In this document: positions 3,431 to 21,603 of the stretch, piece after piece
How the letters are laid out: each line of letters starts with the position of its first letter
Position numbering within the stretch: position 1 is the first letter of the stretch
NCBI GenBank assembly: GCA_023474425.1
Contig: JAMCXX010000001.1
Location: forward strand, 1 to 55,480
Length of the DNA stretch: 55,480 bases
Source of the DNA: Patescibacteria group bacterium
Lineage (GTDB): Bacteria; Patescibacteriota; WWE3; JAMCXX01
Reading direction: 5' to 3'
Position numbers and translations under genes: made by a program
Notes under the pieces: generated by a model
Database searches by the model: none
Told to the model about the DNA's origin: nothing
The model's input: only the letters and a program-made list of their open reading frames with translations

Positions 3431-5410
3431 TTAAGCAGTCACTATTAAATTCTTTAGCTTTTCTGACTCCTCCTTGGCTTTTTTAAGAGCGAATTTAAAA
3501 TTGAAAGTGATGTTTTTTTTGTTTTGTTTCTTAAGTTCGTCGTTTTCAAAAATGCCAACAAATTTAATTTTTGTACTCGGGTCCATTTCGTTTCTCAATC
3601 TGTTGAGCAGTTTGCCGGCTTCCGCTCTCGCATCCACTTCGAAGGTTTTATCTTCCGCAACTAGGTTTTCAATACTTGTTTTAACTCCAGAAGCCGGGTT
3701 AGGTTTAGCCTGTTTCAAAAGCTCCTGCGTGTAAAAACAGGCATGACACCAGGTTCCTTCGAGATTAAAGTTGCTTAGGAGTGCCTGCTTAAGCTCTCCT
3801 ACCTCACCGATTTCTTCGCCGTTTGTTTTTAGAATAGCGCCCTTTTGCTCTTTATAAATAACAAGCTTTTCTTTTACCCAAACCGGCTCAAAATTACCCA
3901 GCTCTTTAAGAAAAGTCTCCACAAAAGATTTAAAAGAGAGAAAATCTAAGTTTGCACTAAAAGCAATTTTTCGTGTTTCTTTGTATTTTTCCAACCCCCG
4001 CCCCGTTCCGGTTTGGGTGTAGCTTTTACCAACCTCAAAGATTTTAATAGTTGTTACACCGTGCTTTTGATAACTCAAACCGTATTTTAGCTGTCCCGAC
4101 AGCGTTTCCGGTCTCATTATATTTAGTTCCTCGTTCCATGAATTTTGCAGGCGGATAATTTTATTTTCGTTAAAAAGTCCGGTTTTTATTGTGTCTTTTT
4201 CGTCAATTATCTGTTGCGAAACTACTTCATTGAACCCAAGCTTGGTAAGGGTGTCCCGAGCTAAGTCTTCTAAGTCTCTTTCCGGAAATTCGAGTTTCTT
4301 GGGAGCCGGTCGGTTGGGAAGAAAGAGAGGGATTTTTTCGTAGGTTCTAATTCTTAAAACCTCCTCAATTAAGTCGGCTTCACCCACAACATCGGTTCTA
4401 AAATAAGGAACTTCCACGGTTATGTTAAGCGGCGTCTCGTTAAGGATTTTGAATTCCAGGGATTTAAGTATCTCTTTAGCTTCCGTTGGTTTAACCTCTT
4501 CACCGGCAATTGTGTTGAGCGCACTAAAGGTTAGGTTTAATACAGTCGGCCCCAGTTCTTCCGGGTAATAGTCGAAGCCCGGTGTTACAGGTGACACGTC
4601 CAAAATATCTTTAAAAAGTTCCAGCGAGCGGGCTATGGCCACTTCGCAAAATTTGGGGTGCAGGTATTTGCCAAGTCTTTGAGAGGTTTCGTTTTTGATT
4701 TTCAAGCGCAGTGCACTGCGTCTGGCGGTTGGCTGGTCGTATAACCCCGCCTCTAATAGAATGTTTTGGGTGGTTGGGGCAATACCCGAAGACCTTCCGC
4801 CAATAGCTGTAGTTAAGGTCAGCGGCTTTTTGGAGTCGGCGGCCACAAGGTCGTTCTCGTCCAATTCCAATTTAGTGCCTTCAAAAGTTACCAGCGACTC
4901 CCCTCTCGTAGCCGCGCGGAGATTTATTTCGTCCACCTTATCCAAATCAAAGGCATGCAGGGGCATACCCAGCTCCACCATAACAAAGTTGGTAACATCC
5001 ACCACATTGTTTAAAGGTTCAATGCCATACGAGGCAAGTCTTTTGGCCAGCCATTTGGGTGAGGGTGTAACTTTAACATTACGCAAAACTACCGCCGTCC
5101 AGCGTAGAACCTTTTTGGAAGAGATAGTAATTTTTGGTATAAATTTATTGTTATCCGAGGCCGGCAGCGGTGCGGTCAGCGGAAATTTTAAAATTTTACC
5201 GGTAAGGGCGGCCAAATCGCGGGCAATGCCCACAATACCCATAATGTCCGCGCGATTGCCGCGGTCCTCTAGATCCAAAATTTTATCGCCTTCCTCACCG
5301 AAGATTGGTTTGTCTAAAGCATGACCGGCCAAGGTTAAAATATTGGCTACTTCCTTGGGGCTTTTATCTATTTCCAGGTAGTCTTTAAGCCAGCCGTAAG
5401 GCACGCGCAT
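3431..5410 (-). CDS. pheT: Phenylalanine--tRNA ligase beta subunit
   Basis: The ORF track starts at a TTG (5428). I prefer the ATG at 5410, which gives MRVPYGWLKDYL, the conserved PheT N-terminus. Lies immediately downstream of pheS. Confidence 0.93.
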   Translation of the reverse strand: MRVPYGWLKDYLEIDKSPKEVANILTLAGHALDKPIFGEEGDKILDLEDRGNRADIMGIVGIARDLAALTGKILKFPLTAPLPASDNNKFIPKITISSKKVLRWTAVVLRNVKVTPSPKWLAKRLASYGIEPLNNVVDVTNFVMVELGMPLHAFDLDKVDEINLRAATRGESLVTFEGTKLELDENDLVAADSKKPLTLTTAIGGRSSGIAPTTQNILLEAGLYDQPTARRSALRLKIKNETSQRLGKYLHPKFCEVAIARSLELFKDILDVSPVTPGFDYYPEELGPTVLNLTFSALNTIAGEEVKPTEAKEILKSLEFKILNETPLNITVEVPYFRTDVVGEADLIEEVLRIRTYEKIPLFLPNRPAPKKLEFPERDLEDLARDTLTKLGFNEVVSQQIIDEKDTIKTGLFNENKIIRLQNSWNEELNIMRPETLSGQLKYGLSYQKHGVTTIKIFEVGKSYTQTGTGRGLEKYKETRKIAFSANLDFLSFKSFVETFLKELGNFEPVWVKEKLVIYKEQKGAILKTNGEEIGEVGELKQALLSNFNLEGTWCHACFYTQELLKQAKPNPASGVKTSIENLVAEDKTFEVDARAEAGKLLNRLRNEMDPSTKIKFVGIFENDELKKQNKKNITFNFKFALKKAKEESEKLKNLIVTA

Positions 5411-13701: not shown

Positions 13702-14205
13702 TTAATTATTAGTTCTTATCCTTACTGCCTCCTCAACCGCGTCAGAAATGTATCTTGAAATCCAGTCGTATCTTTCTTTGCTGTTACTTCCGCTCGGATT
13801 GTAACATTTTACTATCGCAGATAATTTTTTACCAGTGTCGCCGTAGGATATGTAATCAAACGGATTGGCTCCAGATTCGGTAATGTACCCCTCGTTATTT
13901 TTCAATCCATGTATACGAATACCAACTACACCCAAACTAGCGTTCCATGCTTCTATAATCTCGTGATTTATCCATTTACGATTCGCTGTTTCCTTTCCAA
14001 CAAGCACAACCGCGCATGTTCGATATTTCATTTGTTCCTTTATCCATTTTTTGATCGCCTCGTGGCCACCGCGCACAACCGTTTCCCAATCATTATCCGG
14101 TGCCGGTTTGTTTCCCTCAATTACTCCAATACTACGAACAGTTGCTGCTCGCCAGCAATCGGGTTTGTAGTGAAAACTATAAAAAACTTGTCTTCTTGTT
14201 GCCAT
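13702..14205 (-). CDS. ThsB-like TIR-domain protein (DUF1863/Thoeris ThsB clade)
   Basis: The ORF track starts at 14298. I prefer the ATG at 14205 (167 aa), 2 nt after the upstream stop codon. Blocks VFYSFHY, VLVGKETANRKWINHEI and GANPFDYISY resemble ThsB as I remember it, and the candidate catalytic Glu is retained. Confidence 0.72.
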   Translation of the reverse strand: MATRRQVFYSFHYKPDCWRAATVRSIGVIEGNKPAPDNDWETVVRGGHEAIKKWIKEQMKYRTCAVVLVGKETANRKWINHEIIEAWNASLGVVGIRIHGLKNNEGYITESGANPFDYISYGDTGKKLSAIVKCYNPSGSNSKERYDWISRYISDAVEEAVRIRTNN

Positions 14206-14207
14206 AT

Positions 14208-14612
14208 TTATTTGATGAGTTGTAGAACTACAAACATTGCTAATGCAAGCGGTACATAAAACCAAAGCAAGGTCGCAGACAACATTGAGCCAAGCCAAGT
14301 ATTACGCCAAATATCTTTGTACTTTTTTGTGTTCATCGAAAAATCTACTTTCTGCTCGTCCAGTTTTCTTACATCGTCGTATAAACAGCAAAATCTCCGT
14401 TCTTGTGAGAGAAAATATCCGTCCAAAATCCAAAAAATAAGAAGCAGAAAGTAAGCGAGCAAAATATAGCCGCCATACGAACCCTTTGCGGCGGAAAGTG
14501 CAAATAGTCCGGTAATTAAGGTTATTGTCCAGCCACGCAGGAAAAATAAATTTCCGGCCATTCGATTTATAACCCCCTGTATTAACTCAAGATGTTTACG
14601 CTTATTTTCCAT
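14208..14612 (-). CDS. Small three-TM membrane protein, unknown family
   Basis: 134 aa with ATG start. Hydrophobic segments at about aa 22-42, 47-67 and 105-131, with a charged ~35-aa loop between TM2 and TM3. Tightly coupled to the TIR gene. Confidence 0.6.
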   Translation of the reverse strand: MENKRKHLELIQGVINRMAGNLFFLRGWTITLITGLFALSAAKGSYGGYILLAYFLLLIFWILDGYFLSQERRFCCLYDDVRKLDEQKVDFSMNTKKYKDIWRNTWLGSMLSATLLWFYVPLALAMFVVLQLIK

Positions 14613-14622
14613 TGCTACAAAA

Positions 14623-15462
14623 TTATAGTTTTCCTTCCTCTAACTTTTCCGGCGGCGGTTCGATACCAAGAAATTCTCGGTAGATTCGATTTTTATAGTC
14701 TGCCCCAATCTCATTTATCGCTTCGATAAATGCTTTATATGTCCCAAGCCCGCCGATTTTCTCCCAAAACTCATCACCAATTAAAACTACTTCATCGTTT
14801 TTCATATCGAACCACCGAGCCGGAAAAGCCCAAGAGTAATTCTCTCGTTTCCCAAAAGGATTGTAGGGAAGCGCGTAAAAAGCACCGTCAACTTGCAATG
14901 GCTCCATACTATAAAGCTTGAGCATTTTCTCTTTACTTACCTTTGTTTGGTCGCTATTCGGCAAAGGTGCCTTCAACTCAAAAGCATATTTCTTTTTGTT
15001 TTTTTTATCTTCCGCATATACATCAGATATGACCGTAACAGGAATAAGTTTTGTGTTTTTGCCCTCCAAAATATATTTCAATTCATTGTCCCAATCCGGC
15101 TTAATGCGTTTCTTATCTTTTATTCCGTGTTCAAGGTTATTTAGCACTTCTTGGATCCTACGCAATCTTTCGGCATTTACTTTGCCAGTTATTGTCTTTC
15201 CTTTTTCTCCGTGCCCAAGACCGTTATTTGCCGCAACTATCGCTAACTTTTCCCAAACCCCGCCGAATGGGGTAACAAAACGGCGTTCAAAATGAGAGCC
15301 CTTAAATATTTCGTCCGGTACTAAAGCCGCATAAAGCGGCTTCTTGGCTCTGTGTTCTTCTTTCACAAAAGGTTCTTCTACCAAAACCTTATTCATAACC
15401 CTATCCATCATCATTTTTATGACAGATTGGATTGCCTTTTTCATTTCTTGTTTCTCGGTCAT
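14623..15462 (-). CDS. Type II restriction endonuclease (PD-(D/E)xK; TdeIII-like by recollection)
   Basis: 279 aa. The ATG overlaps the methyltransferase stop (ATGA). Candidate catalytic motif SDVY-x12-FELK (D...ExK). The family name is unverified. Confidence 0.6.
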   Translation of the reverse strand: MTEKQEMKKAIQSVIKMMMDRVMNKVLVEEPFVKEEHRAKKPLYAALVPDEIFKGSHFERRFVTPFGGVWEKLAIVAANNGLGHGEKGKTITGKVNAERLRRIQEVLNNLEHGIKDKKRIKPDWDNELKYILEGKNTKLIPVTVISDVYAEDKKNKKKYAFELKAPLPNSDQTKVSKEKMLKLYSMEPLQVDGAFYALPYNPFGKRENYSWAFPARWFDMKNDEVVLIGDEFWEKIGGLGTYKAFIEAINEIGADYKNRIYREFLGIEPPPEKLEEGKL

Positions 15463-16652
15463 ATTTTTTGCCAGATTAAAATACTTTCGTAAAATGCACC
15501 CTCACGTCTTCCAGTCCGGCGGTTCACATGACGTTCAACACGTCCAATTTCCTTAAACCCCGCATCGTCTGCTTTGTAAAGTCCATATTTGTCATTTACA
15601 ACAATGAGAGCCAGACCTTTTGGCGTCATATATTTACGAGTATGGAGTAAAACATCATTTATGCCTTTGATATAGTCCTGTTTTGCTTGTTGTGATTGTC
15701 CATTTTTTGCAGGACCAATTTCCCTCGTCTCGTTATTTTTTAGACCAAGTAATTCGTAAGCGTATTTATGTTGTTCGTGGTAATCAATCAAACCAATATA
15801 GGGAGGTGAAGTGAAAACCATATCAATACCGTTTGGTAACTCAACCTCGCGCGAATCCGCATGGTTTACGATTACTTTTGCTTTCGTCTTAATTTTAGAA
15901 AATTCTTTTATGCGATCTAACGTATCAATCGTGTAACGCGACAAGAATTTATAAGCTTCTTCAACCGGCTGACATGTTCGGTTATGTTTGTAGCACTGAT
16001 AGGGTTTTGTTTGCGGCTCCTTTGGAAAATCCAGATCGTAGTGTGTAACAAGCCGCGCTGAACGCGCCGAACGAGATAAAACAACTTTCAATAAATCTTG
16101 ATAAGTGTAATCCTTAATAAGCCGTAGATAGCATAGAAGCTCTTTTTGTGTGTTTGGCGCGAACCATTTTTGTATATACTCATTTTTCGTTGAAAATACC
16201 TTGTTTACCTTTTCGTCATTAGAAAACTTACTTTTATAGGTATTGAGACGATTCAAAATTTCGTAAACTTCCTCTTCAAGTCTTGGAATATCATAATCAT
16301 CAGTCTTAACTTTTGAAAGCAGGATATTAAAGGCCGAAATATCAGTGCCGATTGAATCTATGCCGAGCGCGTTTGCCTCAACTAAAGTTGTCCCGCTTCC
16401 AGCGAACGGGTCATAAACAAGGGTTGGCTCGTACTTACGTAAAAATATTTCTACAAGTTGCGGAATAAATTTACCAAGATAGGGATGTAAGCGGTGAACG
16501 TGTTTTGTTCTTTGGTATTCGGGCAAATCGCGCTCGCGCCAATTCAAATTCAAAGATTCAAGTGGAGTCTCCGGCTTTACGCTGGCAAAATCCGTAAGCG
16601 GATTTTGCTTATACTGCTGGGCTATTTTTTGAGCAATAGTATTATCGTACAC
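15459..16652 (-). CDS. DNA methyltransferase (N4-cytosine or N6-adenine; SPPY motif)
   Basis: 397 aa with GTG start. AdoMet motif I DPFAGSGTT (aa 81-89) precedes catalytic motif IV TSPPY (aa 281-285). HPYLGKFIPQL block typical of the N6_N4 MTase family. Confidence 0.85.
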   Translation of the reverse strand: MYDNTIAQKIAQQYKQNPLTDFASVKPETPLESLNLNWRERDLPEYQRTKHVHRLHPYLGKFIPQLVEIFLRKYEPTLVYDPFAGSGTTLVEANALGIDSIGTDISAFNILLSKVKTDDYDIPRLEEEVYEILNRLNTYKSKFSNDEKVNKVFSTKNEYIQKWFAPNTQKELLCYLRLIKDYTYQDLLKVVLSRSARSARLVTHYDLDFPKEPQTKPYQCYKHNRTCQPVEEAYKFLSRYTIDTLDRIKEFSKIKTKAKVIVNHADSREVELPNGIDMVFTSPPYIGLIDYHEQHKYAYELLGLKNNETREIGPAKNGQSQQAKQDYIKGINDVLLHTRKYMTPKGLALIVVNDKYGLYKADDAGFKEIGRVERHVNRRTGRREGAFYESILIWQKI

Positions 16653-16793: not shown

Positions 16794-16884
16794 TGGTGCT
16801 GAGGAGAGGACTTGAACCTCCACCCCCGATTTTACGGAGACAGGCCCCTCAAGCCTGCGCGTCTGCCAATTCCGCCACCTCAGC
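16794..16884 (-). tRNA. tRNA-Leu (anticodon GAG), CCA encoded
   Basis: 91-nt class II tRNA. Acceptor GCTGAGG/CCTCAGC, anticodon loop TTGAGGG, long variable arm. Confidence 0.9.
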
Positions 16885-16899
16885 TTATTTCTTATTTTA

Positions 16900-18432
16900 T
16901 CACACGTTGGCGAACTCCTTAATTGCTTTGGCGGCTTCCTTAGGTTGTTCCAGGGGTACCACGTGTCCCGCTTTCTCGATTATTTTTAAGCGCACCAGGC
17001 TGTTTTCGGGCAAGATTTTTTCTCGAGCGAAATTAGGTGAAGAGATCTTGTCCTCGCGGCCGTAAAGAAGCAGGGTTTCCGTGTCGGTTGATTTAAGTAT
17101 ACCGGCCAAGTCGTAGCCTGCGGCCGAAATTCCCATTTGCGTAAAGGCTTCCTTACGCATCTTTTTTTTGCCGATCAGTCCGTAGGCGTCAACCAGAAAA
17201 CGATTAAACTTGTACATATTAATGTATTTGGACATGGCATAGGCGGCCAGCCTGGTTTCAATAATTTTCTTTAGAGTAGATTCGCCCAGTGAAAATTTCT
17301 TGAATAACCAAAGAGAATACCTCACCGCGCTGCCGGCCAGGTCAATCCCCTGCCCGCGCATTACCGGGCCGGCTAAGATTAATTTACTTATTGAGTTCGG
17401 AAACCTTTTAGCGGTTTCCGCGGCTACTAAACTGCCCATGGAAAGTCCGCAAAGAATCACGGGACTTTCTGAAACCGCAGTTAAAAAGCGGCCAACATAA
17501 TTGGCTGCGGATTCAATGGAATAAACCGGCAAATCGCCCGAATCGCCGAATCCCGGCAAATCCAAAAGATAGAGCGTAAAGTCTTTTTTTAAGTATTTAA
17601 TCACCGGAACCCAACCCTCCCAGTTATTGGCCCAGCCGTGAATTAGGACTAACGGCCGTCCGGCTCCAACCCGGACATAATTTATTTTAAGACCTTTAAT
17701 AATTACATTTTTAGGACGATAGTTAGAAGTAAGACGTCCGGCGGGAGCCTCCCAGTAGTTTCTTAGGCCGTTTAGAAAGTCACGGGGCATTTGAGTGCCG
17801 TAGATATTAACGTATTTACCAACCAGGTTGCTGGCCTCGGCCAGGTGAAGCTTCCATCCGTGCCCCTTTTGGGGTTTGGGTAAGTCGTTGACCCCGTCCA
17901 GAAGAACCTTGATTACCGGTTGTCTTTTTTTAAAGAAATAGTAGTTCATGTAGGGCTCAATGCCGTAATCATCGGCTAATGGGCTATCAAGAACTTTAAT
18001 TAAGTCGTTTTTAGAAATGACCCTCATTCCGGAAATAAGCGGCAAAAAGTTAGCCCGTATCCAGTGGTAGGAAGACAGATTATTTTTTTGGGTTAGACCT
18101 ACAACCAGCCCCTTAGGGTTTTTCTCATAAGCCTCAACCATTTTTCTTACATGGTTTTCTTTAAGCCCGATTAAGTCGGCATCGCAAAGAAAAATGGCGG
18201 AACGTGTGGCAAGATTTAGGCCTTGGCGTACATCCTGTCCTTTGCCGCCGCGTTTTTTTAGCGCAACAATTTTAACCTTATTAAAATTCCGGGCGATTTT
18301 TACGGAGTTGTCCGTACTACCCCCGTCAACAAAAATAATTTTTTTAACTAGAGGGGATTTGTTTAAGGCCGTAAGCACGCCTCCGACCCTTGGTTCCTCG
18401 TTGTAACAAGGGACGATTGTGTCAATAATCAT
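16900..18432 (-). CDS. Fusion protein: family-2 glycosyltransferase (N) plus alpha/beta hydrolase (C)
   Basis: 510 aa with ATG start. N-terminus has IVPCYNEE...FVDGGSTDNS...DAD (GT-A/GT2). C-terminus has LVLIHGW...GLSMGS (GxSxG nucleophile elbow)...GH. Confidence 0.8.
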   Translation of the reverse strand: MIIDTIVPCYNEEPRVGGVLTALNKSPLVKKIIFVDGGSTDNSVKIARNFNKVKIVALKKRGGKGQDVRQGLNLATRSAIFLCDADLIGLKENHVRKMVEAYEKNPKGLVVGLTQKNNLSSYHWIRANFLPLISGMRVISKNDLIKVLDSPLADDYGIEPYMNYYFFKKRQPVIKVLLDGVNDLPKPQKGHGWKLHLAEASNLVGKYVNIYGTQMPRDFLNGLRNYWEAPAGRLTSNYRPKNVIIKGLKINYVRVGAGRPLVLIHGWANNWEGWVPVIKYLKKDFTLYLLDLPGFGDSGDLPVYSIESAANYVGRFLTAVSESPVILCGLSMGSLVAAETAKRFPNSISKLILAGPVMRGQGIDLAGSAVRYSLWLFKKFSLGESTLKKIIETRLAAYAMSKYINMYKFNRFLVDAYGLIGKKKMRKEAFTQMGISAAGYDLAGILKSTDTETLLLYGREDKISSPNFAREKILPENSLVRLKIIEKAGHVVPLEQPKEAAKAIKEFANV

Positions 18433-18440
18433 ACTGTAGC

Positions 18441-18530
18441 TGGTGCCGGAGAGAGGACTCGAACCTCCACGGGAGGATTAATCCCACTAGGCCCTGAACC
18501 TAGCGCGTCTGCCAATTCCGCCACTCCGGC
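18441..18530 (-). tRNA. tRNA-Leu (anticodon CAG), CCA encoded
   Basis: 90-nt class II tRNA. Acceptor GCCGGAG/CTCCGGC, anticodon loop TTCAGGG. Confidence 0.9.
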
Positions 18531-18601
18531 TCCGTTGACATTTTGACATAAGAGTTGGTCTTTGTTAAATTCTTTTTAACGCTAATCTTTAGAAAGATTA
18601 T

Positions 18602-19231
18602 ATGAAACATCTGCCTTTGGCTTTATTGGTGGTTGTCTTCCTGCCGGTTTTATTTTTTTTGGGAGGCTCAATTGCTGTTTTGTCTGCCGGGGTTTTTTTG
18701 GTGACGCAGAAAGCCTCACCAATTGCCGTTGTGCCCGACACTTCGGTAAAGCAACGTAGTGTTTATAACCTATTTTCTTCCCCGCCTCCGGTTTTGGGGT
18801 CGTTTACTTCTTCGGTGAGCACGGCAGACGCACGGGCCTTAAAGCTGGAGCAGTTTTTTGCCAAATACCACTCCCCTCTTTCGGGCTATGGGGAGGACTT
18901 TGTTACCGCGGCTCAAAAATACAGTCTGCCCTGGCAGCTTTTACCGGCTATTTCTATGCAAGAGTCTTTAGGCGGAACCAACGTACCAGAGGATTGCTTT
19001 AACCCCTTCGGTTGGGGCATTAATTCGGCAGGCACGCTTTGTTTTTCTGACTGGCCGCAAGCGATTGAAACGGTTTCCAAAGGAATGAAGGAGAGATACA
19101 TAGACAACGGTCTTGTAACGGTGGAACAAATAATGAGCAAGTATAATCCCATTTCCTACCACCGCGACGGGTCTTGGGGCAACGGTGTGCAGTACTTCTT
19201 GGACGAAATCAACTCCTTTAGCACTCCCTAA
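18602..19231 (+). CDS. Secreted/anchored peptidoglycan hydrolase-like protein (GH73 glucosaminidase-like)
   Basis: 209 aa with ATG start and an N-terminal TM. AISMQESLGGT...NPFGWG resembles the ESxxG...N.FG block of the glucosaminidase domain. Confidence 0.5.
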   Translation: MKHLPLALLVVVFLPVLFFLGGSIAVLSAGVFLVTQKASPIAVVPDTSVKQRSVYNLFSSPPPVLGSFTSSVSTADARALKLEQFFAKYHSPLSGYGEDFVTAAQKYSLPWQLLPAISMQESLGGTNVPEDCFNPFGWGINSAGTLCFSDWPQAIETVSKGMKERYIDNGLVTVEQIMSKYNPISYHRDGSWGNGVQYFLDEINSFSTP

Positions 19232-19258
19232 AGGGCGAATCTCGAACCTATCGAAGGG

Positions 19259-19347
19259 TGGTGCCAAGGGAGGGACTCGAACCCTCACGTCCCATTAAGG
19301 ACACACGGTTCTAAGCCGTGGCTGTCTACCAATTTCAGCACCTTGGC
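19259..19347 (-). tRNA. tRNA-Leu (anticodon TAG), CCA encoded
   Basis: 89-nt class II tRNA. Acceptor GCCAAGG/CCTTGGC, anticodon loop CTTAGAA. Confidence 0.9.
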
Positions 19348-19465
19348 ACAGCTTAATTGTAAGTGGAAAATTGTCCCGACGTAAAGTCCGGACCCCGGTG
19401 CCAGATGATTTTGTCGGCATTACGTACCGTAGCGTCGGAACTGAAATGTTGGAAAAAAATTACGT

Positions 19466-20041
19466 TCAGAGGGGTTTGTATTCCTTGTTTTTTTCCATCT
19501 CTTTGCCCAAAAGATCGCGCAGGTAAACGGCCCGGGGCACTCTTTTGACCCGCGAAATCCAGTCTAAATAATCGTTTATTTCCGGAGAAATAAAGAAGTT
19601 GAACCTAATTGGCGCACTGCCTTTAAGATTTGCAATTTCTTGCGTTAACACCTCCTCAATATTCTCTAGCGTGTATTTCACAATACGCACGGTGTTTGTT
19701 GGCACGGCCTTTAAAATTTGTGGAACAAGAGATCCGCTCACCTGTAAGACCAGAACGGGTTTGTTTTTTTCCAGGGCGATAGAAATCTCGTGCCCGATAC
19801 CGATGGTCGGTTGGGAAACTTCCGCAACGACTAAATCGGCAGAGGAGATATTTTTAAGCGTTCGTTCGTAGTACTTGACTAATTCTTTGTCCGAGGCGTC
19901 TCTTACTTGGTTGTACTCTGTATTGAGCACATGATCGCTGACCAGTTTATAGCCAAGACCGGTAAGCACGTCGATTATTCTTTCGTAGTTCTTCTGATAT
20001 TTAGCCTTACCCGACAGCGAAGCTGCAAAGTATATTTTCAT
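19466..20041 (-). CDS. DNPH1/nucleoside 2-deoxyribosyltransferase-like protein with C-terminal RHH-like tail
   Basis: 191 aa with ATG start. KIYFAASLSG at the N-terminus and ADLVVAEVSQPTIGIGHEISIAL resemble DNPH1 (Rcl) ADVVVAEVTQPSLGVGYELG, including the catalytic Glu. Residues ~145-180 (RFNFFISPEINDYLDWISRVKRVPRAVYLRDLL) look like a beta-strand/helix/helix RHH unit. Confidence 0.65.
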   Translation of the reverse strand: MKIYFAASLSGKAKYQKNYERIIDVLTGLGYKLVSDHVLNTEYNQVRDASDKELVKYYERTLKNISSADLVVAEVSQPTIGIGHEISIALEKNKPVLVLQVSGSLVPQILKAVPTNTVRIVKYTLENIEEVLTQEIANLKGSAPIRFNFFISPEINDYLDWISRVKRVPRAVYLRDLLGKEMEKNKEYKPL

Positions 20042-20060
20042 AAGCTTAATTAGTTTAGTT

Positions 20061-20696
20061 TTAATTAGCAGAATTTACAATCTTAGAATACAAATCAGAT
20101 AGGCCGTTTTGTTCCAGCAACTCTTTTAAATAATCGTTGCTAAAAGTATGATTGTTCTTCAGCTGTCCGCAATCGACTAAGTCTTTATTGATAATTCTAG
20201 ACCCTACTCTAAAAGTGCGTCGGGTAATACTTTTGCATATAAAGACCAGCTCTGGGCGCGCAATTTTTATTCTAAATCCGTCTATTTTAAAGAGAATCGC
20301 ATCGCGTATGGCTTTTTCGTTGTAAGGCATTCGTATAATACGTCCGTTGTTGAGTTTGTATACCCAATCGGTTGATATGTGAACTTCGACACCACGAACA
20401 CTAGTTCTTAGATAGCTGGTAATGGGTGTTACATCACCAAATTTTGATACAAACTTAACCTGACATAAACCGTCAAATTCTTTGTTCTTGTTAAGGATAT
20501 ACTCGAGTTCGTTTAACTCAACTCCGTTGACGATAATGTCAATGTCTGTTATTGGTCTTTGCGGATTCCCGTAATAAAAAACAGATACGCCCGAGACTAC
20601 CATCCAATCCAGACTATTTTTTCTAAAATATTCATTCAGAAATCTAAGCGTATTTATGTATTTTATTCCGATTGTTTGTTTTTCTGTTTTCTTCAT
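20061..20696 (-). CDS. Pol-beta-fold nucleotidyltransferase-like protein
   Basis: The ORF track starts at TTG 20723. I prefer the ATG at 20696 (211 aa). VVSGVSVFYYGNPQRPITDIDIIV fits the G[SG]-x(9-14)-DxD NTase signature. The gene is AT-rich and lies 19 nt upstream of the DNPH1-like gene. Confidence 0.55.
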   Translation of the reverse strand: MKKTEKQTIGIKYINTLRFLNEYFRKNSLDWMVVSGVSVFYYGNPQRPITDIDIIVNGVELNELEYILNKNKEFDGLCQVKFVSKFGDVTPITSYLRTSVRGVEVHISTDWVYKLNNGRIIRMPYNEKAIRDAILFKIDGFRIKIARPELVFICKSITRRTFRVGSRIINKDLVDCGQLKNNHTFSNDYLKELLEQNGLSDLYSKIVNSAN

Positions 20697-20712
20697 ATAG
20701 CAAAAACCAACC

Positions 20713-20738
20713 CAAAAAAGCAAACCTTACGGTTTGCT
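20713..20738 (-). terminator. Rho-independent terminator after the 20822-21523 gene
   Basis: Minus-strand stem AGCAAACC/GGTTTGCT (8 bp, 4-nt loop) followed by UUUUUUGGG. Confidence 0.6.
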
Positions 20739-20821
20739 CCTTATGTTCCTCGCTTCTGTTTTTTTATTAAACCAGACTTTGCCACTATAGCTTAATAATC
20801 TTAATTTTGCAAACTCCGATT

Positions 20822-21523
20822 TTAGTCAACTGTAGAGCCAATTTCAACTGTTGCCGGCGGAAGGTACGTGTCTTTTGGCAGATTAATGACGATAACGGGA
20901 TTGAACGAGAATTCCCCCCTATTTTTGCCGTTTTGGGGCGTAACATTAATTTCTTTTCCGTTAGTAATAGTTAAGTCTTCGGGGCTGCGGCTTGAAGATT
21001 TAATATCGTTTTTGCTAAGACTTAGGCCTATGTAATTTTTAGCCATAAATTCCGAGAGCGGCCCGGCGTCTTTAATGAAAATTGCAAGTTTCCAGGTAGT
21101 TGAGTCGGGGCGGCTGTCTTTGACTTCAAAAGTACCGAGTTGTATGCGAATCTCCTTGTCTTCGCTCGATTTATCTTCGGCGTTTACGAAAACGCTTTTT
21201 GGGGCTTTAAGATATAGTTGGCCGCTTTGGAAGTTGGAGAGATTTTCTATTAGACTTTGCGCCTTAGGAATTAAATTCTGAAGACCGGCGCTTCCTAGTT
21301 GACCGAGATCCTTTAGATTTCCCAAGTTAAGGTTTTGCGATAAATATGAACTGACAGAGGCGGTAAGCCCGGAATTATCCAGTGGAGCGGTCAGATTGGT
21401 CACGGAAGGGGGTATATATTTGACAACCAAACCTTCAATTTTCTGGCCTTTTTGTATCTGCCCGCTAAAATAAAGAACGGCGGCAAGAAGTCCAATTATA
21501 AAGACAAAACGCAGTAGTACCAT
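20822..21523 (-). CDS. Signal-anchored hypothetical protein
   Basis: 233 aa with ATG start, an N-terminal hydrophobic anchor and a beta-rich C-terminal part. No motif recognised. Confidence 0.5.
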   Translation of the reverse strand: MVLLRFVFIIGLLAAVLYFSGQIQKGQKIEGLVVKYIPPSVTNLTAPLDNSGLTASVSSYLSQNLNLGNLKDLGQLGSAGLQNLIPKAQSLIENLSNFQSGQLYLKAPKSVFVNAEDKSSEDKEIRIQLGTFEVKDSRPDSTTWKLAIFIKDAGPLSEFMAKNYIGLSLSKNDIKSSSRSPEDLTITNGKEINVTPQNGKNRGEFSFNPVIVINLPKDTYLPPATVEIGSTVD

Positions 21524-21528
21524 AATTT

Positions 21529-21603
21529 TGGTCGGGGAGACAGGAGTCGCACCTGCTACCTCTCGGTCCCAAACCGAGCGTTCTACTGCTGAACTACTCC
21601 CCG
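21529..21603 (-). tRNA. tRNA-Pro (anticodon TGG), CCA encoded
   Basis: 75 nt. Acceptor CGGGGAG/CTCCCCG, anticodon loop TTTGGGA. The T-loop reads TGCGACT (G at position 55). Confidence 0.85.

Follow-up and report, generated by a model that had tools for sequence, protein, structure and literature searches.

Ribbon-helix-helix (RHH) domains are the commonest DNA-binding fold of antitoxins, and NikR gives a precedent for the fusion of such a domain to a ligand-binding one. The NDT (nucleoside deoxyribosyltransferase) fold, shared by DNPH1, is related to the SLOG and TIR sensor/effector domains. In the stretch of DNA analysed here (the window: 55,480 nucleotides, positions 1 to 55,480 of contig JAMCXX010000001.1, from a Patescibacteria group bacterium), both kinds of domain are found in a single protein, encoded by gene B, and directly upstream, on the same strand, gene A encodes a divergent nucleotidyltransferase (NTase) of the Pol-beta fold. 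Each of the three domains (Pol-beta NTase, DNPH1/NDT and RHH) is already known by itself. Apparently new are the NDT/DNPH1-RHH family, the tandem arrays of its active and inactive paralogs, and the linked clade of Asp-Asp-His NTases; none of these is named in Pfam, NCBIfam or PADLOC, and no description of them was found in a literature search, so that the initial annotation of the locus was right not to recognise the architecture as a named system. The best explanation, which we favour at a little less than an even chance, is that B is a core Microgenomates protein that binds or hydrolyses nucleotides and carries an RHH domain, and that A is an accessory NTase recruited to its operon in one clade.

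Domain identities and active sites of the two proteins

The domain identities come from searches of Pfam, NCBIfam and PADLOC-DB v2, from profile and phmmer searches of the PDB, and from AF2 models compared by Foldseek. The two open reading frames (ORFs) and the domains of B are placed as follows:

19466-20041, minus strand: gene B, ORF of 191 amino acids, with a DNPH1/NDT-like N-glycosidase domain and a C-terminal RHH domain
19619-20041, minus strand: residues 1-141 of B, DNPH1-type Rossmann-like domain, from the alignment with rat Rcl and family conservation
19490-19609, minus strand: residues 145-184 of B, RHH unit, from conservation, AF2 secondary structure and matches to RHH families
20061-20696, minus strand: gene A, ORF of 211 amino acids from its ATG, divergent Pol-beta-fold NTase

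The lengths of both ORFs and the gap of 19 nucleotides between them agree with the initial annotation. The mechanical ORF of A runs out to a TTG at 20723; this start was rejected because it lies within a terminator hairpin and the relatives begin at the aligned ATG.

Residues 3-100 of B match PF05014 above its gathering score (E 1.4e-8, 35.3 bits against a cutoff of 28.8). Moreover, phmmer retrieves rat and human DNPH1/Rcl from the PDB (E 2e-11), and the profile of the B family reaches DNPH1/Rcl with an E of 1.5e-20. With the AF2 model of B (pLDDT 87.7), the top 50 Foldseek matches are all DNPH1, with TM values of ~0.8-0.88 normalised to the target (about 0.85), at ~25-28% identity over 140 amino acids. 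In human DNPH1, catalysis involves Glu104 (the nucleophile), Tyr24 and Asp80, and the 5'-phosphate is bound by Ser98, Gly100, the 29-31 loop and Ser128' of the partner subunit (PMC10483697). The catalytic Glu85, Tyr4 and Asp69 of B align with E104, Y24 and D80 of the human enzyme, and its Thr79 and Gly81 occupy the phosphate-binding positions of Ser98 and Gly100. This supports the assignment made in the initial annotation, a DNPH1/NDT-like N-terminus with the catalytic Glu retained. The B protein of the window is probably catalytically competent, cleaving deoxynucleoside monophosphates (dNMPs) to base and deoxyribose-5-phosphate, and it may plausibly, though not certainly, be specific for 5'-phosphate substrates.

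In comparison with DNPH1/Rcl (PF05014 superfamily), B has the same fold, the same Tyr, Asp and Glu, a predicted Ser/Thr-x-Gly phosphate loop and the N-terminal loop. However, the C-terminal RHH domain is found in B and not in DNPH1 or NDT enzymes, Pro107 stands at the position of the partner-subunit residue Ser128', the nucleophilic Glu is lost in many members of the B family, and this family is confined to Patescibacteria. No match for B was found in NCBIfam. In PADLOC-DB v2 there was only a noise-level one, to ThsB (E 0.03), and weak matches to SLOG families were seen as well.

The C-terminal tail of B comprises a putative strand (IRFNFFIS), a helix (153-165), a VP turn and a second helix (170-184). 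Residues 145-184 are the most conserved segment of the whole family, with R146, F147, N148, F149, F150, L159, W161, P169 and R175 invariant in its alignment. When 32 tails from the family were compared with Pfam, RHH_3 was matched by 14 of them (best E 1.1e-5) and RHH_1 by three (best 2.7e-7), others matching RHH_5, CopG_antitoxin, Arc or CcdA. Against the PDB, the matches of the tail profile are all weak: a CopG-family regulator (E 0.05), NikR (E 1.7) and 3h87, a 73-residue protein uncharacterised by its depositors. In the AF2 monomer, residues 142-152 are coil and residues 153-165 and 170-184 are helical. Hence, the RHH-like tail proposed in the initial annotation is accepted at the level of the family, from the sequences of its members. 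The tail resembles the RHH regulators CopG, Arc, MetJ and NikR in its predicted ~40-residue strand-helix-helix layout and in the alternation of polar and hydrophobic residues along the strand (R-F-N-F-F), and the Pfam and PDB matches of the B tails go to RHH families only. On the other hand, the RHH of B is C-terminal to an enzyme domain, being N-terminal in NikR and most antitoxins, the strand residues of the B family are invariant across hundreds of species, and no operator for B was found in the promoter k-mer and inverted-repeat searches described below.

In gene A, the NTase signature SGVSVFYYGNPQRPITDIDIIV (residues 35-56) aligns with the hG[GS]...DxD motif of distant nucleotidyltransferases. 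Its core, S35-G36 and D51-I-D53, is invariant in the alignment with the A clusters, and the invariant G36 and D51xD53 are followed by PE...K155...R160 and K171-D172..D175. In this C-terminal part, the K...R and KD..D motifs recall motifs III and IV of DUF1814 (PMC7450476). The position of the third metal-binding carboxylate, on the h[DE]h strand, is His106, invariant in five A clusters, and the nearby Glu104 is not conserved, being Asn or Val in two lineages. The third carboxylate is thus missing in A.

No Pfam family, PF08843 included, matches A at E <= 1, nor does any NCBIfam model, and PADLOC-DB v2 gives only AbiEii at noise level (E 0.03). The AF2 model (pLDDT 92.7) nevertheless finds only NTases by Foldseek, MenT1 being first (E 2e-7, TM 0.62-0.69), followed by TM1012, JHP933, LnuA, ANT(2'')-Ia and MenT3. 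When the A profile is searched against the PDB, TM1012 comes first (5e-16), followed in turn by a fungal NTase-like protein, MenT1 (2e-9) and LnuA (7e-7). Judging from its motifs and predicted fold, A is a real, unusual Pol-beta-fold NTase, as the initial annotation had suggested. For the toxin-antitoxin-like pair that it also considered, the evidence from A is mixed: MenT1/AbiEii is among the closest solved folds, but the third catalytic carboxylate is absent.

Gene A is also very rare. A word-indexed search returned two homologs, and an exhaustive hidden Markov model search of 1.84 billion representatives gave four close clusters (E < 1e-68) and ~25 distant relatives of ~180-200 residues (E 1e-7 to 1e-3), which makes about five clusters among 15 billion proteins; no further A clusters were found in a metagenome scan. 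The distant relatives match DUF2204, NTP_transf_5, DUF6036, ANT(2'') and AbiEii, and it is only through them that PF08843 is reached. For two of them (P0129 and P0130) the neighbours are unrelated genes (a HAD hydrolase and an LTD protein), uninformative on TA (toxin-antitoxin) pairing.

A comparison with MenT1 and AbiEii (DUF1814) shows a best structural match, the hG[GS] and DxD motifs, the resemblance to motifs III and IV and a similar size (~190-210 residues). However, A has no PF08843 match, an invariant His replaces the third carboxylate, and no AbiEi, MenA or COG5340-type antitoxin gene lies directly upstream; the linked gene, B, is downstream and unrelated, and upstream of A there is a gene for a protein of 233 residues followed by a terminator hairpin. 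The core fold of A is likewise that of the TM1012, DUF2204, NTP_transf_5 and DUF6036 NTases, LnuA and ANT(2'')-Ia, TM1012 being the closest by profile. Members of these families either have no characterised function or use antibiotics as substrates, whereas A forms a tiny clade of its own, always linked to a DNPH1-RHH gene.

Distribution, neighbours and residue conservation of the B family

In contrast with the rarity of A, the family of B holds more than 490 protein clusters: 493 homologs were found, nearly all of 187-200 residues and covering ~99% of the query, so the DNPH1-RHH fusion is the standard architecture of the family. Relatives with the RFNFF motif are present in 192 GTDB species representatives, and the source names include Microgenomates, Beckwithbacteria, Shapirobacteria, Collierbacteria and Chisholmbacteria. 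Many records carrying B (L010, L027 and numerous loci among L011-L087) are titled 'uncultured Pseudomonadales' or 'Gammaproteobacteria' despite a Patescibacteria-type gene and neighbourhood, and two such contigs sit in metagenome-assembled genomes of Bathyarchaeia and Methanoperedens. Wrong taxonomic labels in the public records, or contamination during binning, probably account for these odd host assignments.

The neighbours of B were compared in 80 GTDB loci of other species, where B is 35-50% identical to that of the window. The genes found were recR (31 of 80 loci), a radical-SAM gene (23), ybaB and cysS (15 each), dnaX and a PfkB kinase (11 each), and also murF, rmlC and pilM; the core-gene setting includes dnaX-ybaB-recR. 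The B family is therefore large, spread through the Microgenomates and set among core genes, which speaks against the cassette-like character that the initial annotation had attributed to it. In the window, a search for recR, radical-SAM, cysS and dnaX found none of them; here, B occupies another genomic region than in the other loci. The radical-SAM protein (~320-356 residues) is the commonest immediate upstream neighbour of B elsewhere (L015, L090 and 21 more), with the same orientation as B in 12 loci and a divergent one in nine, and is often preceded by a PfkB-family kinase. It reaches no NCBIfam equivalog cutoff and shows weak similarity to MoaA, NirJ and viperin.

The largest neighbour cluster is formed by paralogs of B itself, with 33 of the 80 loci having 2-4 tandem NDT-RHH genes; a single copy is present in the 55 kb of the window. 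Arrays of three or four paralogs occur in L012, L018, L020, L028, L051, L055, L075, L076 and L078 (near position 5000), and many array copies have Leu, Val or Ile at the catalytic Glu position and keep the RHH residues.

A residue census over 127 family members shows how unevenly the two domains are conserved. Glu85, the catalytic nucleophile, is kept in 88 members and is Leu, Val or Ile in 32, Tyr4 is also kept in 88, and the full Tyr/Asp/Glu triad is present in 62. The position of Thr79 is Ser in 114 of them, and G83, two residues before Glu85, is kept in 126. In the RHH, R175 of the helix is found in all 127, R146 of the strand in 126, and N148 in 114 (Thr in 12). Since the RHH is near-invariant and the catalytic Glu is lost in about a quarter of the family, the RHH is the constant part and catalysis is dispensable. 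This pattern would be expected of a ligand-binding domain placed on a DNA-binding output, and not of the specialised effector that a mobile defence system would have. Also, tandem arrays with catalytic and dead paralogs fit a sensor role of a normally enzymatic fold.

Linkage of A and B and the surrounding locus

Every contig with an A homolog has a B homolog directly downstream. This holds for six lineages, where the spacing is 19 nucleotides (window), 13 (L002), 11 (L089), 6 (L003-L008 and L097) or 1 (L091-L093 and L001), the genes overlapping by 4 nucleotides in L099. Identity to the window across these lineages is 42-48% for A and 65-71% for B. On the other hand, an A-like ORF is absent from all 80 of the other GTDB species loci, and at loci with a B of 53-54% identity the place upstream of it is taken by a gene for a radical-SAM protein or a methyltransferase. 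Accordingly, the synteny expected from the initial annotation is seen in the lineages with A and not in the B family at large.

The A-B pair sits within a conserved order, tRNA-Pro/Val/Leu(taa) ... A, B, tRNA-Leu(tag), a ~207-residue gene on the opposite strand, tRNA-Leu(cag) and tRNA-Leu(gag), and the tRNA and flank order of the window matches that of L003, L005, L008, L091 and L092. The nearest features are the following:

19259-19347, minus strand: tRNA-Leu(tag), 118 nucleotides downstream of B, in a position kept in relatives
20713-20738, minus strand: terminator-like hairpin AGCAAACC-GTAA-GGTTTGCT with a T-run, a perfect 8-bp inverted repeat (100% complementary)
20784-20813, minus strand: sigma-70-like promoter match TTGCAA-17-TATAGT, a consensus match only
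20822-21523, minus strand: ORF of 233 amino acids upstream of A, with an N-terminal hydrophobic helix
21529-21921: tRNA-Pro/Val/Leu(taa)/Gly cluster

The initial annotation placed the cassette between tRNA genes. A reading as a tRNA-flanked island was rejected, because the same tRNA order and flanks are found in relatives; this layout indicates backbone synteny and neither an integration signature nor a mobile cassette. The comparison of these loci indicates a single acquisition of A in a small clade, after which the gene was passed on as part of the backbone around it. The short spacing argues for co-transcription of A and B, but with synteny extending over the entire block, the fact that they are neighbours says little about a functional coupling. 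Synonymous and non-synonymous counts between near-identical contigs of the L003 lineage gave only one or two changes, too few to be informative. As for the placement described at first, the tRNA-Leu(tag) flank and the terminator hairpin before A were found, but the tRNA cluster is not adjacent, the 233-residue ORF lying in between. This upstream protein has no family match. In L089 a protein with a homologous C-terminus lies upstream of A, and in L003 and L097 a 242-residue protein is found; the gene is probably outside the A-B module. The G+C content of A (35.7%) is the lowest of the 39 long ORFs in the window (mean 44.6%, standard deviation 3.7) and is below that of B in all five lineages compared, in agreement with the AT-richness noted at first.

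The hairpin follows the 233-residue gene and ends 17 nucleotides ahead of the ATG of A, and the only promoter candidate for A-B is the match at 20784-20813, upstream of the hairpin. This arrangement may be a leader that works by read-through or attenuation. In L089, too, the A gene is preceded by a hairpin with a T-run. An Rfam scan of 19200-21600 detected only tRNAs, with no leader or riboswitch. Also, when the promoter regions of 78 B operons were compared with 370 intergenic regions, the only enriched k-mers were extended -10 elements (TGnTATAAT), and a search for inverted repeats upstream of A in five lineages showed no shared palindrome, only the terminator hairpin of the window and a weak repeat in L089. 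By analogy with other RHH proteins, B may regulate its own operon; for the self-regulated module proposed at first, these searches gave neither an operator nor any other sign of such control.

A small defence cluster lies ~3 kb from A-B (13702-16652, minus strand), where the G+C content is lower (39-42%):

13702-14298, minus strand: PDC-M50B, ThsB-like TIR protein of the candidate system PDC-M50
14208-14612, minus strand: PDC-M50A, of the same candidate system
14623-15462, minus strand: TdeIII-family endonuclease of a type II restriction-modification pair
15459-16652, minus strand: methyltransferase of the same pair

The array of three tRNA-Leu genes (gag, cag, tag) spans 16794-19347 in the window and 4571-6285 in L003, and the cargo between them differs, being a GT2 glycosyltransferase fused to an alpha/beta hydrolase (16900-18432) in the former and a cupredoxin in the latter. 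This array may be a hotspot for variable genes. Elsewhere in the window, ARAGORN reports a tRNA-Gly(gcc) of 84 nucleotides (37785-37868, minus strand), unusually long for a tRNA-Gly, and another tRNA-Gly(gcc), of normal length, is at 33927-34001.

Possible functions of the A-B pair

In the explanation that we favour, A and B would form a two-gene chromosomal operon of a Patescibacteria (Microgenomates-type) genome. The constant function of the B family would be that of its RHH, binding DNA as a dimer, and the nucleotide domain would act as a ligand-binding module, perhaps as a sensor. B would then link nucleotide status to transcription or another DNA transaction, as a core gene and not a mobile one. 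In one small clade, the rare, fast-evolving and AT-rich NTase A would have become fixed directly upstream, co-transcribed with B, in places translationally coupled to it and perhaps coupled in function, its candidate targets being the 3' end of RNA or tRNA, a small molecule or B itself.

Several observations weigh against this explanation. The tail of the B protein of the window itself matches RHH_3 only, and falls under its cutoff (E 0.013, 15.9 bits against 21.6), and the AF2 monomer models the RHH strand as coil, which is expected for an obligate dimer, where the strands of the two subunits would pair into a sheet, but is not proof of one. There is no conserved operator or inverted repeat upstream of the A or B operons that were compared. 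The intact Tyr/Asp/Glu of the window's B would suit a simple salvage enzyme no less than a sensor, the adjacency of A and B within a narrow syntenic clade could reflect shared descent and not coupling, and the closest solved relatives of A include a bona fide toxin, MenT1.

This last point favours a different explanation, a TA or abortive-infection system, where A would act as a toxin of the MenT/AbiEii kind, adding nucleotides to the 3' ends of tRNA or to another RNA, and B as its antitoxin and autorepressor through the RHH, the DNPH1 domain being an added neutralising or sensing part. The MenT1 structural and profile matches, the weak PADLOC match to AbiEii, the motifs after PE that recall DUF1814 (PMC7450476), the rarity, AT-richness and faster evolution of A relative to B, and the tight spacing or overlap of the genes are all in line with this, as are the frequency of RHH domains in antitoxins and the vicinity of the PDC-M50 and restriction-modification genes. 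Nonetheless, B occurs without A in 80 of the 80 other loci, in core-gene contexts, so it is not a dedicated antitoxin, and in this and in its synteny it departs from type II TA systems with RHH antitoxins. Moreover, neither AbiE/MenAT modules nor classical RHH antitoxins typically show this gene order, a C-terminal RHH or an enzyme of 191 residues, which also detracts from the TA-type autoregulator seen in the RHH by the initial annotation. In A, the third carboxylate is absent, PF08843 is not matched, and the profile finds TM1012, of unknown function, better than MenT1, and LnuA as well; finally, the locus is syntenic and not mobile. We therefore consider this explanation, and a TA or defence role of A-B in general, possible but unlikely. 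Somewhat less probable still is a combined scenario. Here the DNPH1-RHH proteins would form a novel, Microgenomates-specific class of one-component DNA-binding proteins that respond to nucleotides, a normally enzymatic fold serving as their sensor. In the clade of the window, one of them would have come to control a MenT-like NTase with an Asp-Asp-His centre, or to be its antitoxin, giving a new type of TA or signalling pair.

As unlikely as the TA system is the absence of any coupling, in which case B would be a housekeeping enzyme for salvage or pool sanitising, or a regulator, and A an unrelated accessory NTase, for example LnuA/ANT(2'')-like, that landed upstream of B in an ancestor and was inherited with the syntenic block. 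Since the conservation of A-B extends to the genes and tRNAs on either side, the adjacency of the two carries little weight by itself; also, LnuA and ANT(2'') are among the structural and profile neighbours of A, and the upstream partner of B varies (radical-SAM, PfkB, methyltransferase, recR). However, the spacing stays between -4 and 19 nucleotides in all six lineages although A has diverged to 42-48% identity, and, as far as the short contigs show, A is always accompanied by B. The least probable explanation, and a rather remote one, is an anti-phage defence that signals with or depletes nucleotides, where, upon infection, A would produce or alter a signal derived from nucleotides. The NDT/SLOG/TIR-like domain of B would then capture this signal, break it down or else deplete dNMPs, and its RHH would turn the response into a change of transcription. 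The kinship of the NDT fold with SLOG and TIR domains, together with the weak SLOG-family and ThsB matches of B, points in this direction, as do the nearby defence cluster (13702-16652) and the pairing of an NTase with a nucleotide-processing domain, to which the initial annotation had drawn attention. Nevertheless, neither protein rises above noise in PADLOC, the fold of A is not cGAS/DncV-like by Foldseek, B belongs to a family of core contexts, and about a quarter of this family lacks the catalytic Glu. The proposal of a defence system thus found no matching PADLOC model, and scans of IMG/VR viral contigs showed no relatives of A or of B, an absence that counts neither for nor against a defence role.

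On the present evidence, A-B is an interesting unannotated operon and not a demonstrated defence system; as a pair, it could widen the range of MenT/AbiEii-type toxins and of their control. The larger interest lies in the fusion family, which is present in hundreds of candidate-phyla species. These organisms rely on nucleotide salvage. With one domain that cleaves or binds dNMPs and another that binds DNA, such a protein would be a plausible regulator of the nucleotide economy or a DNA-associated pool sanitiser, and the repeated loss of the catalytic Glu beside an invariant RHH would make the family a natural experiment in which an enzyme turns into a sensor.

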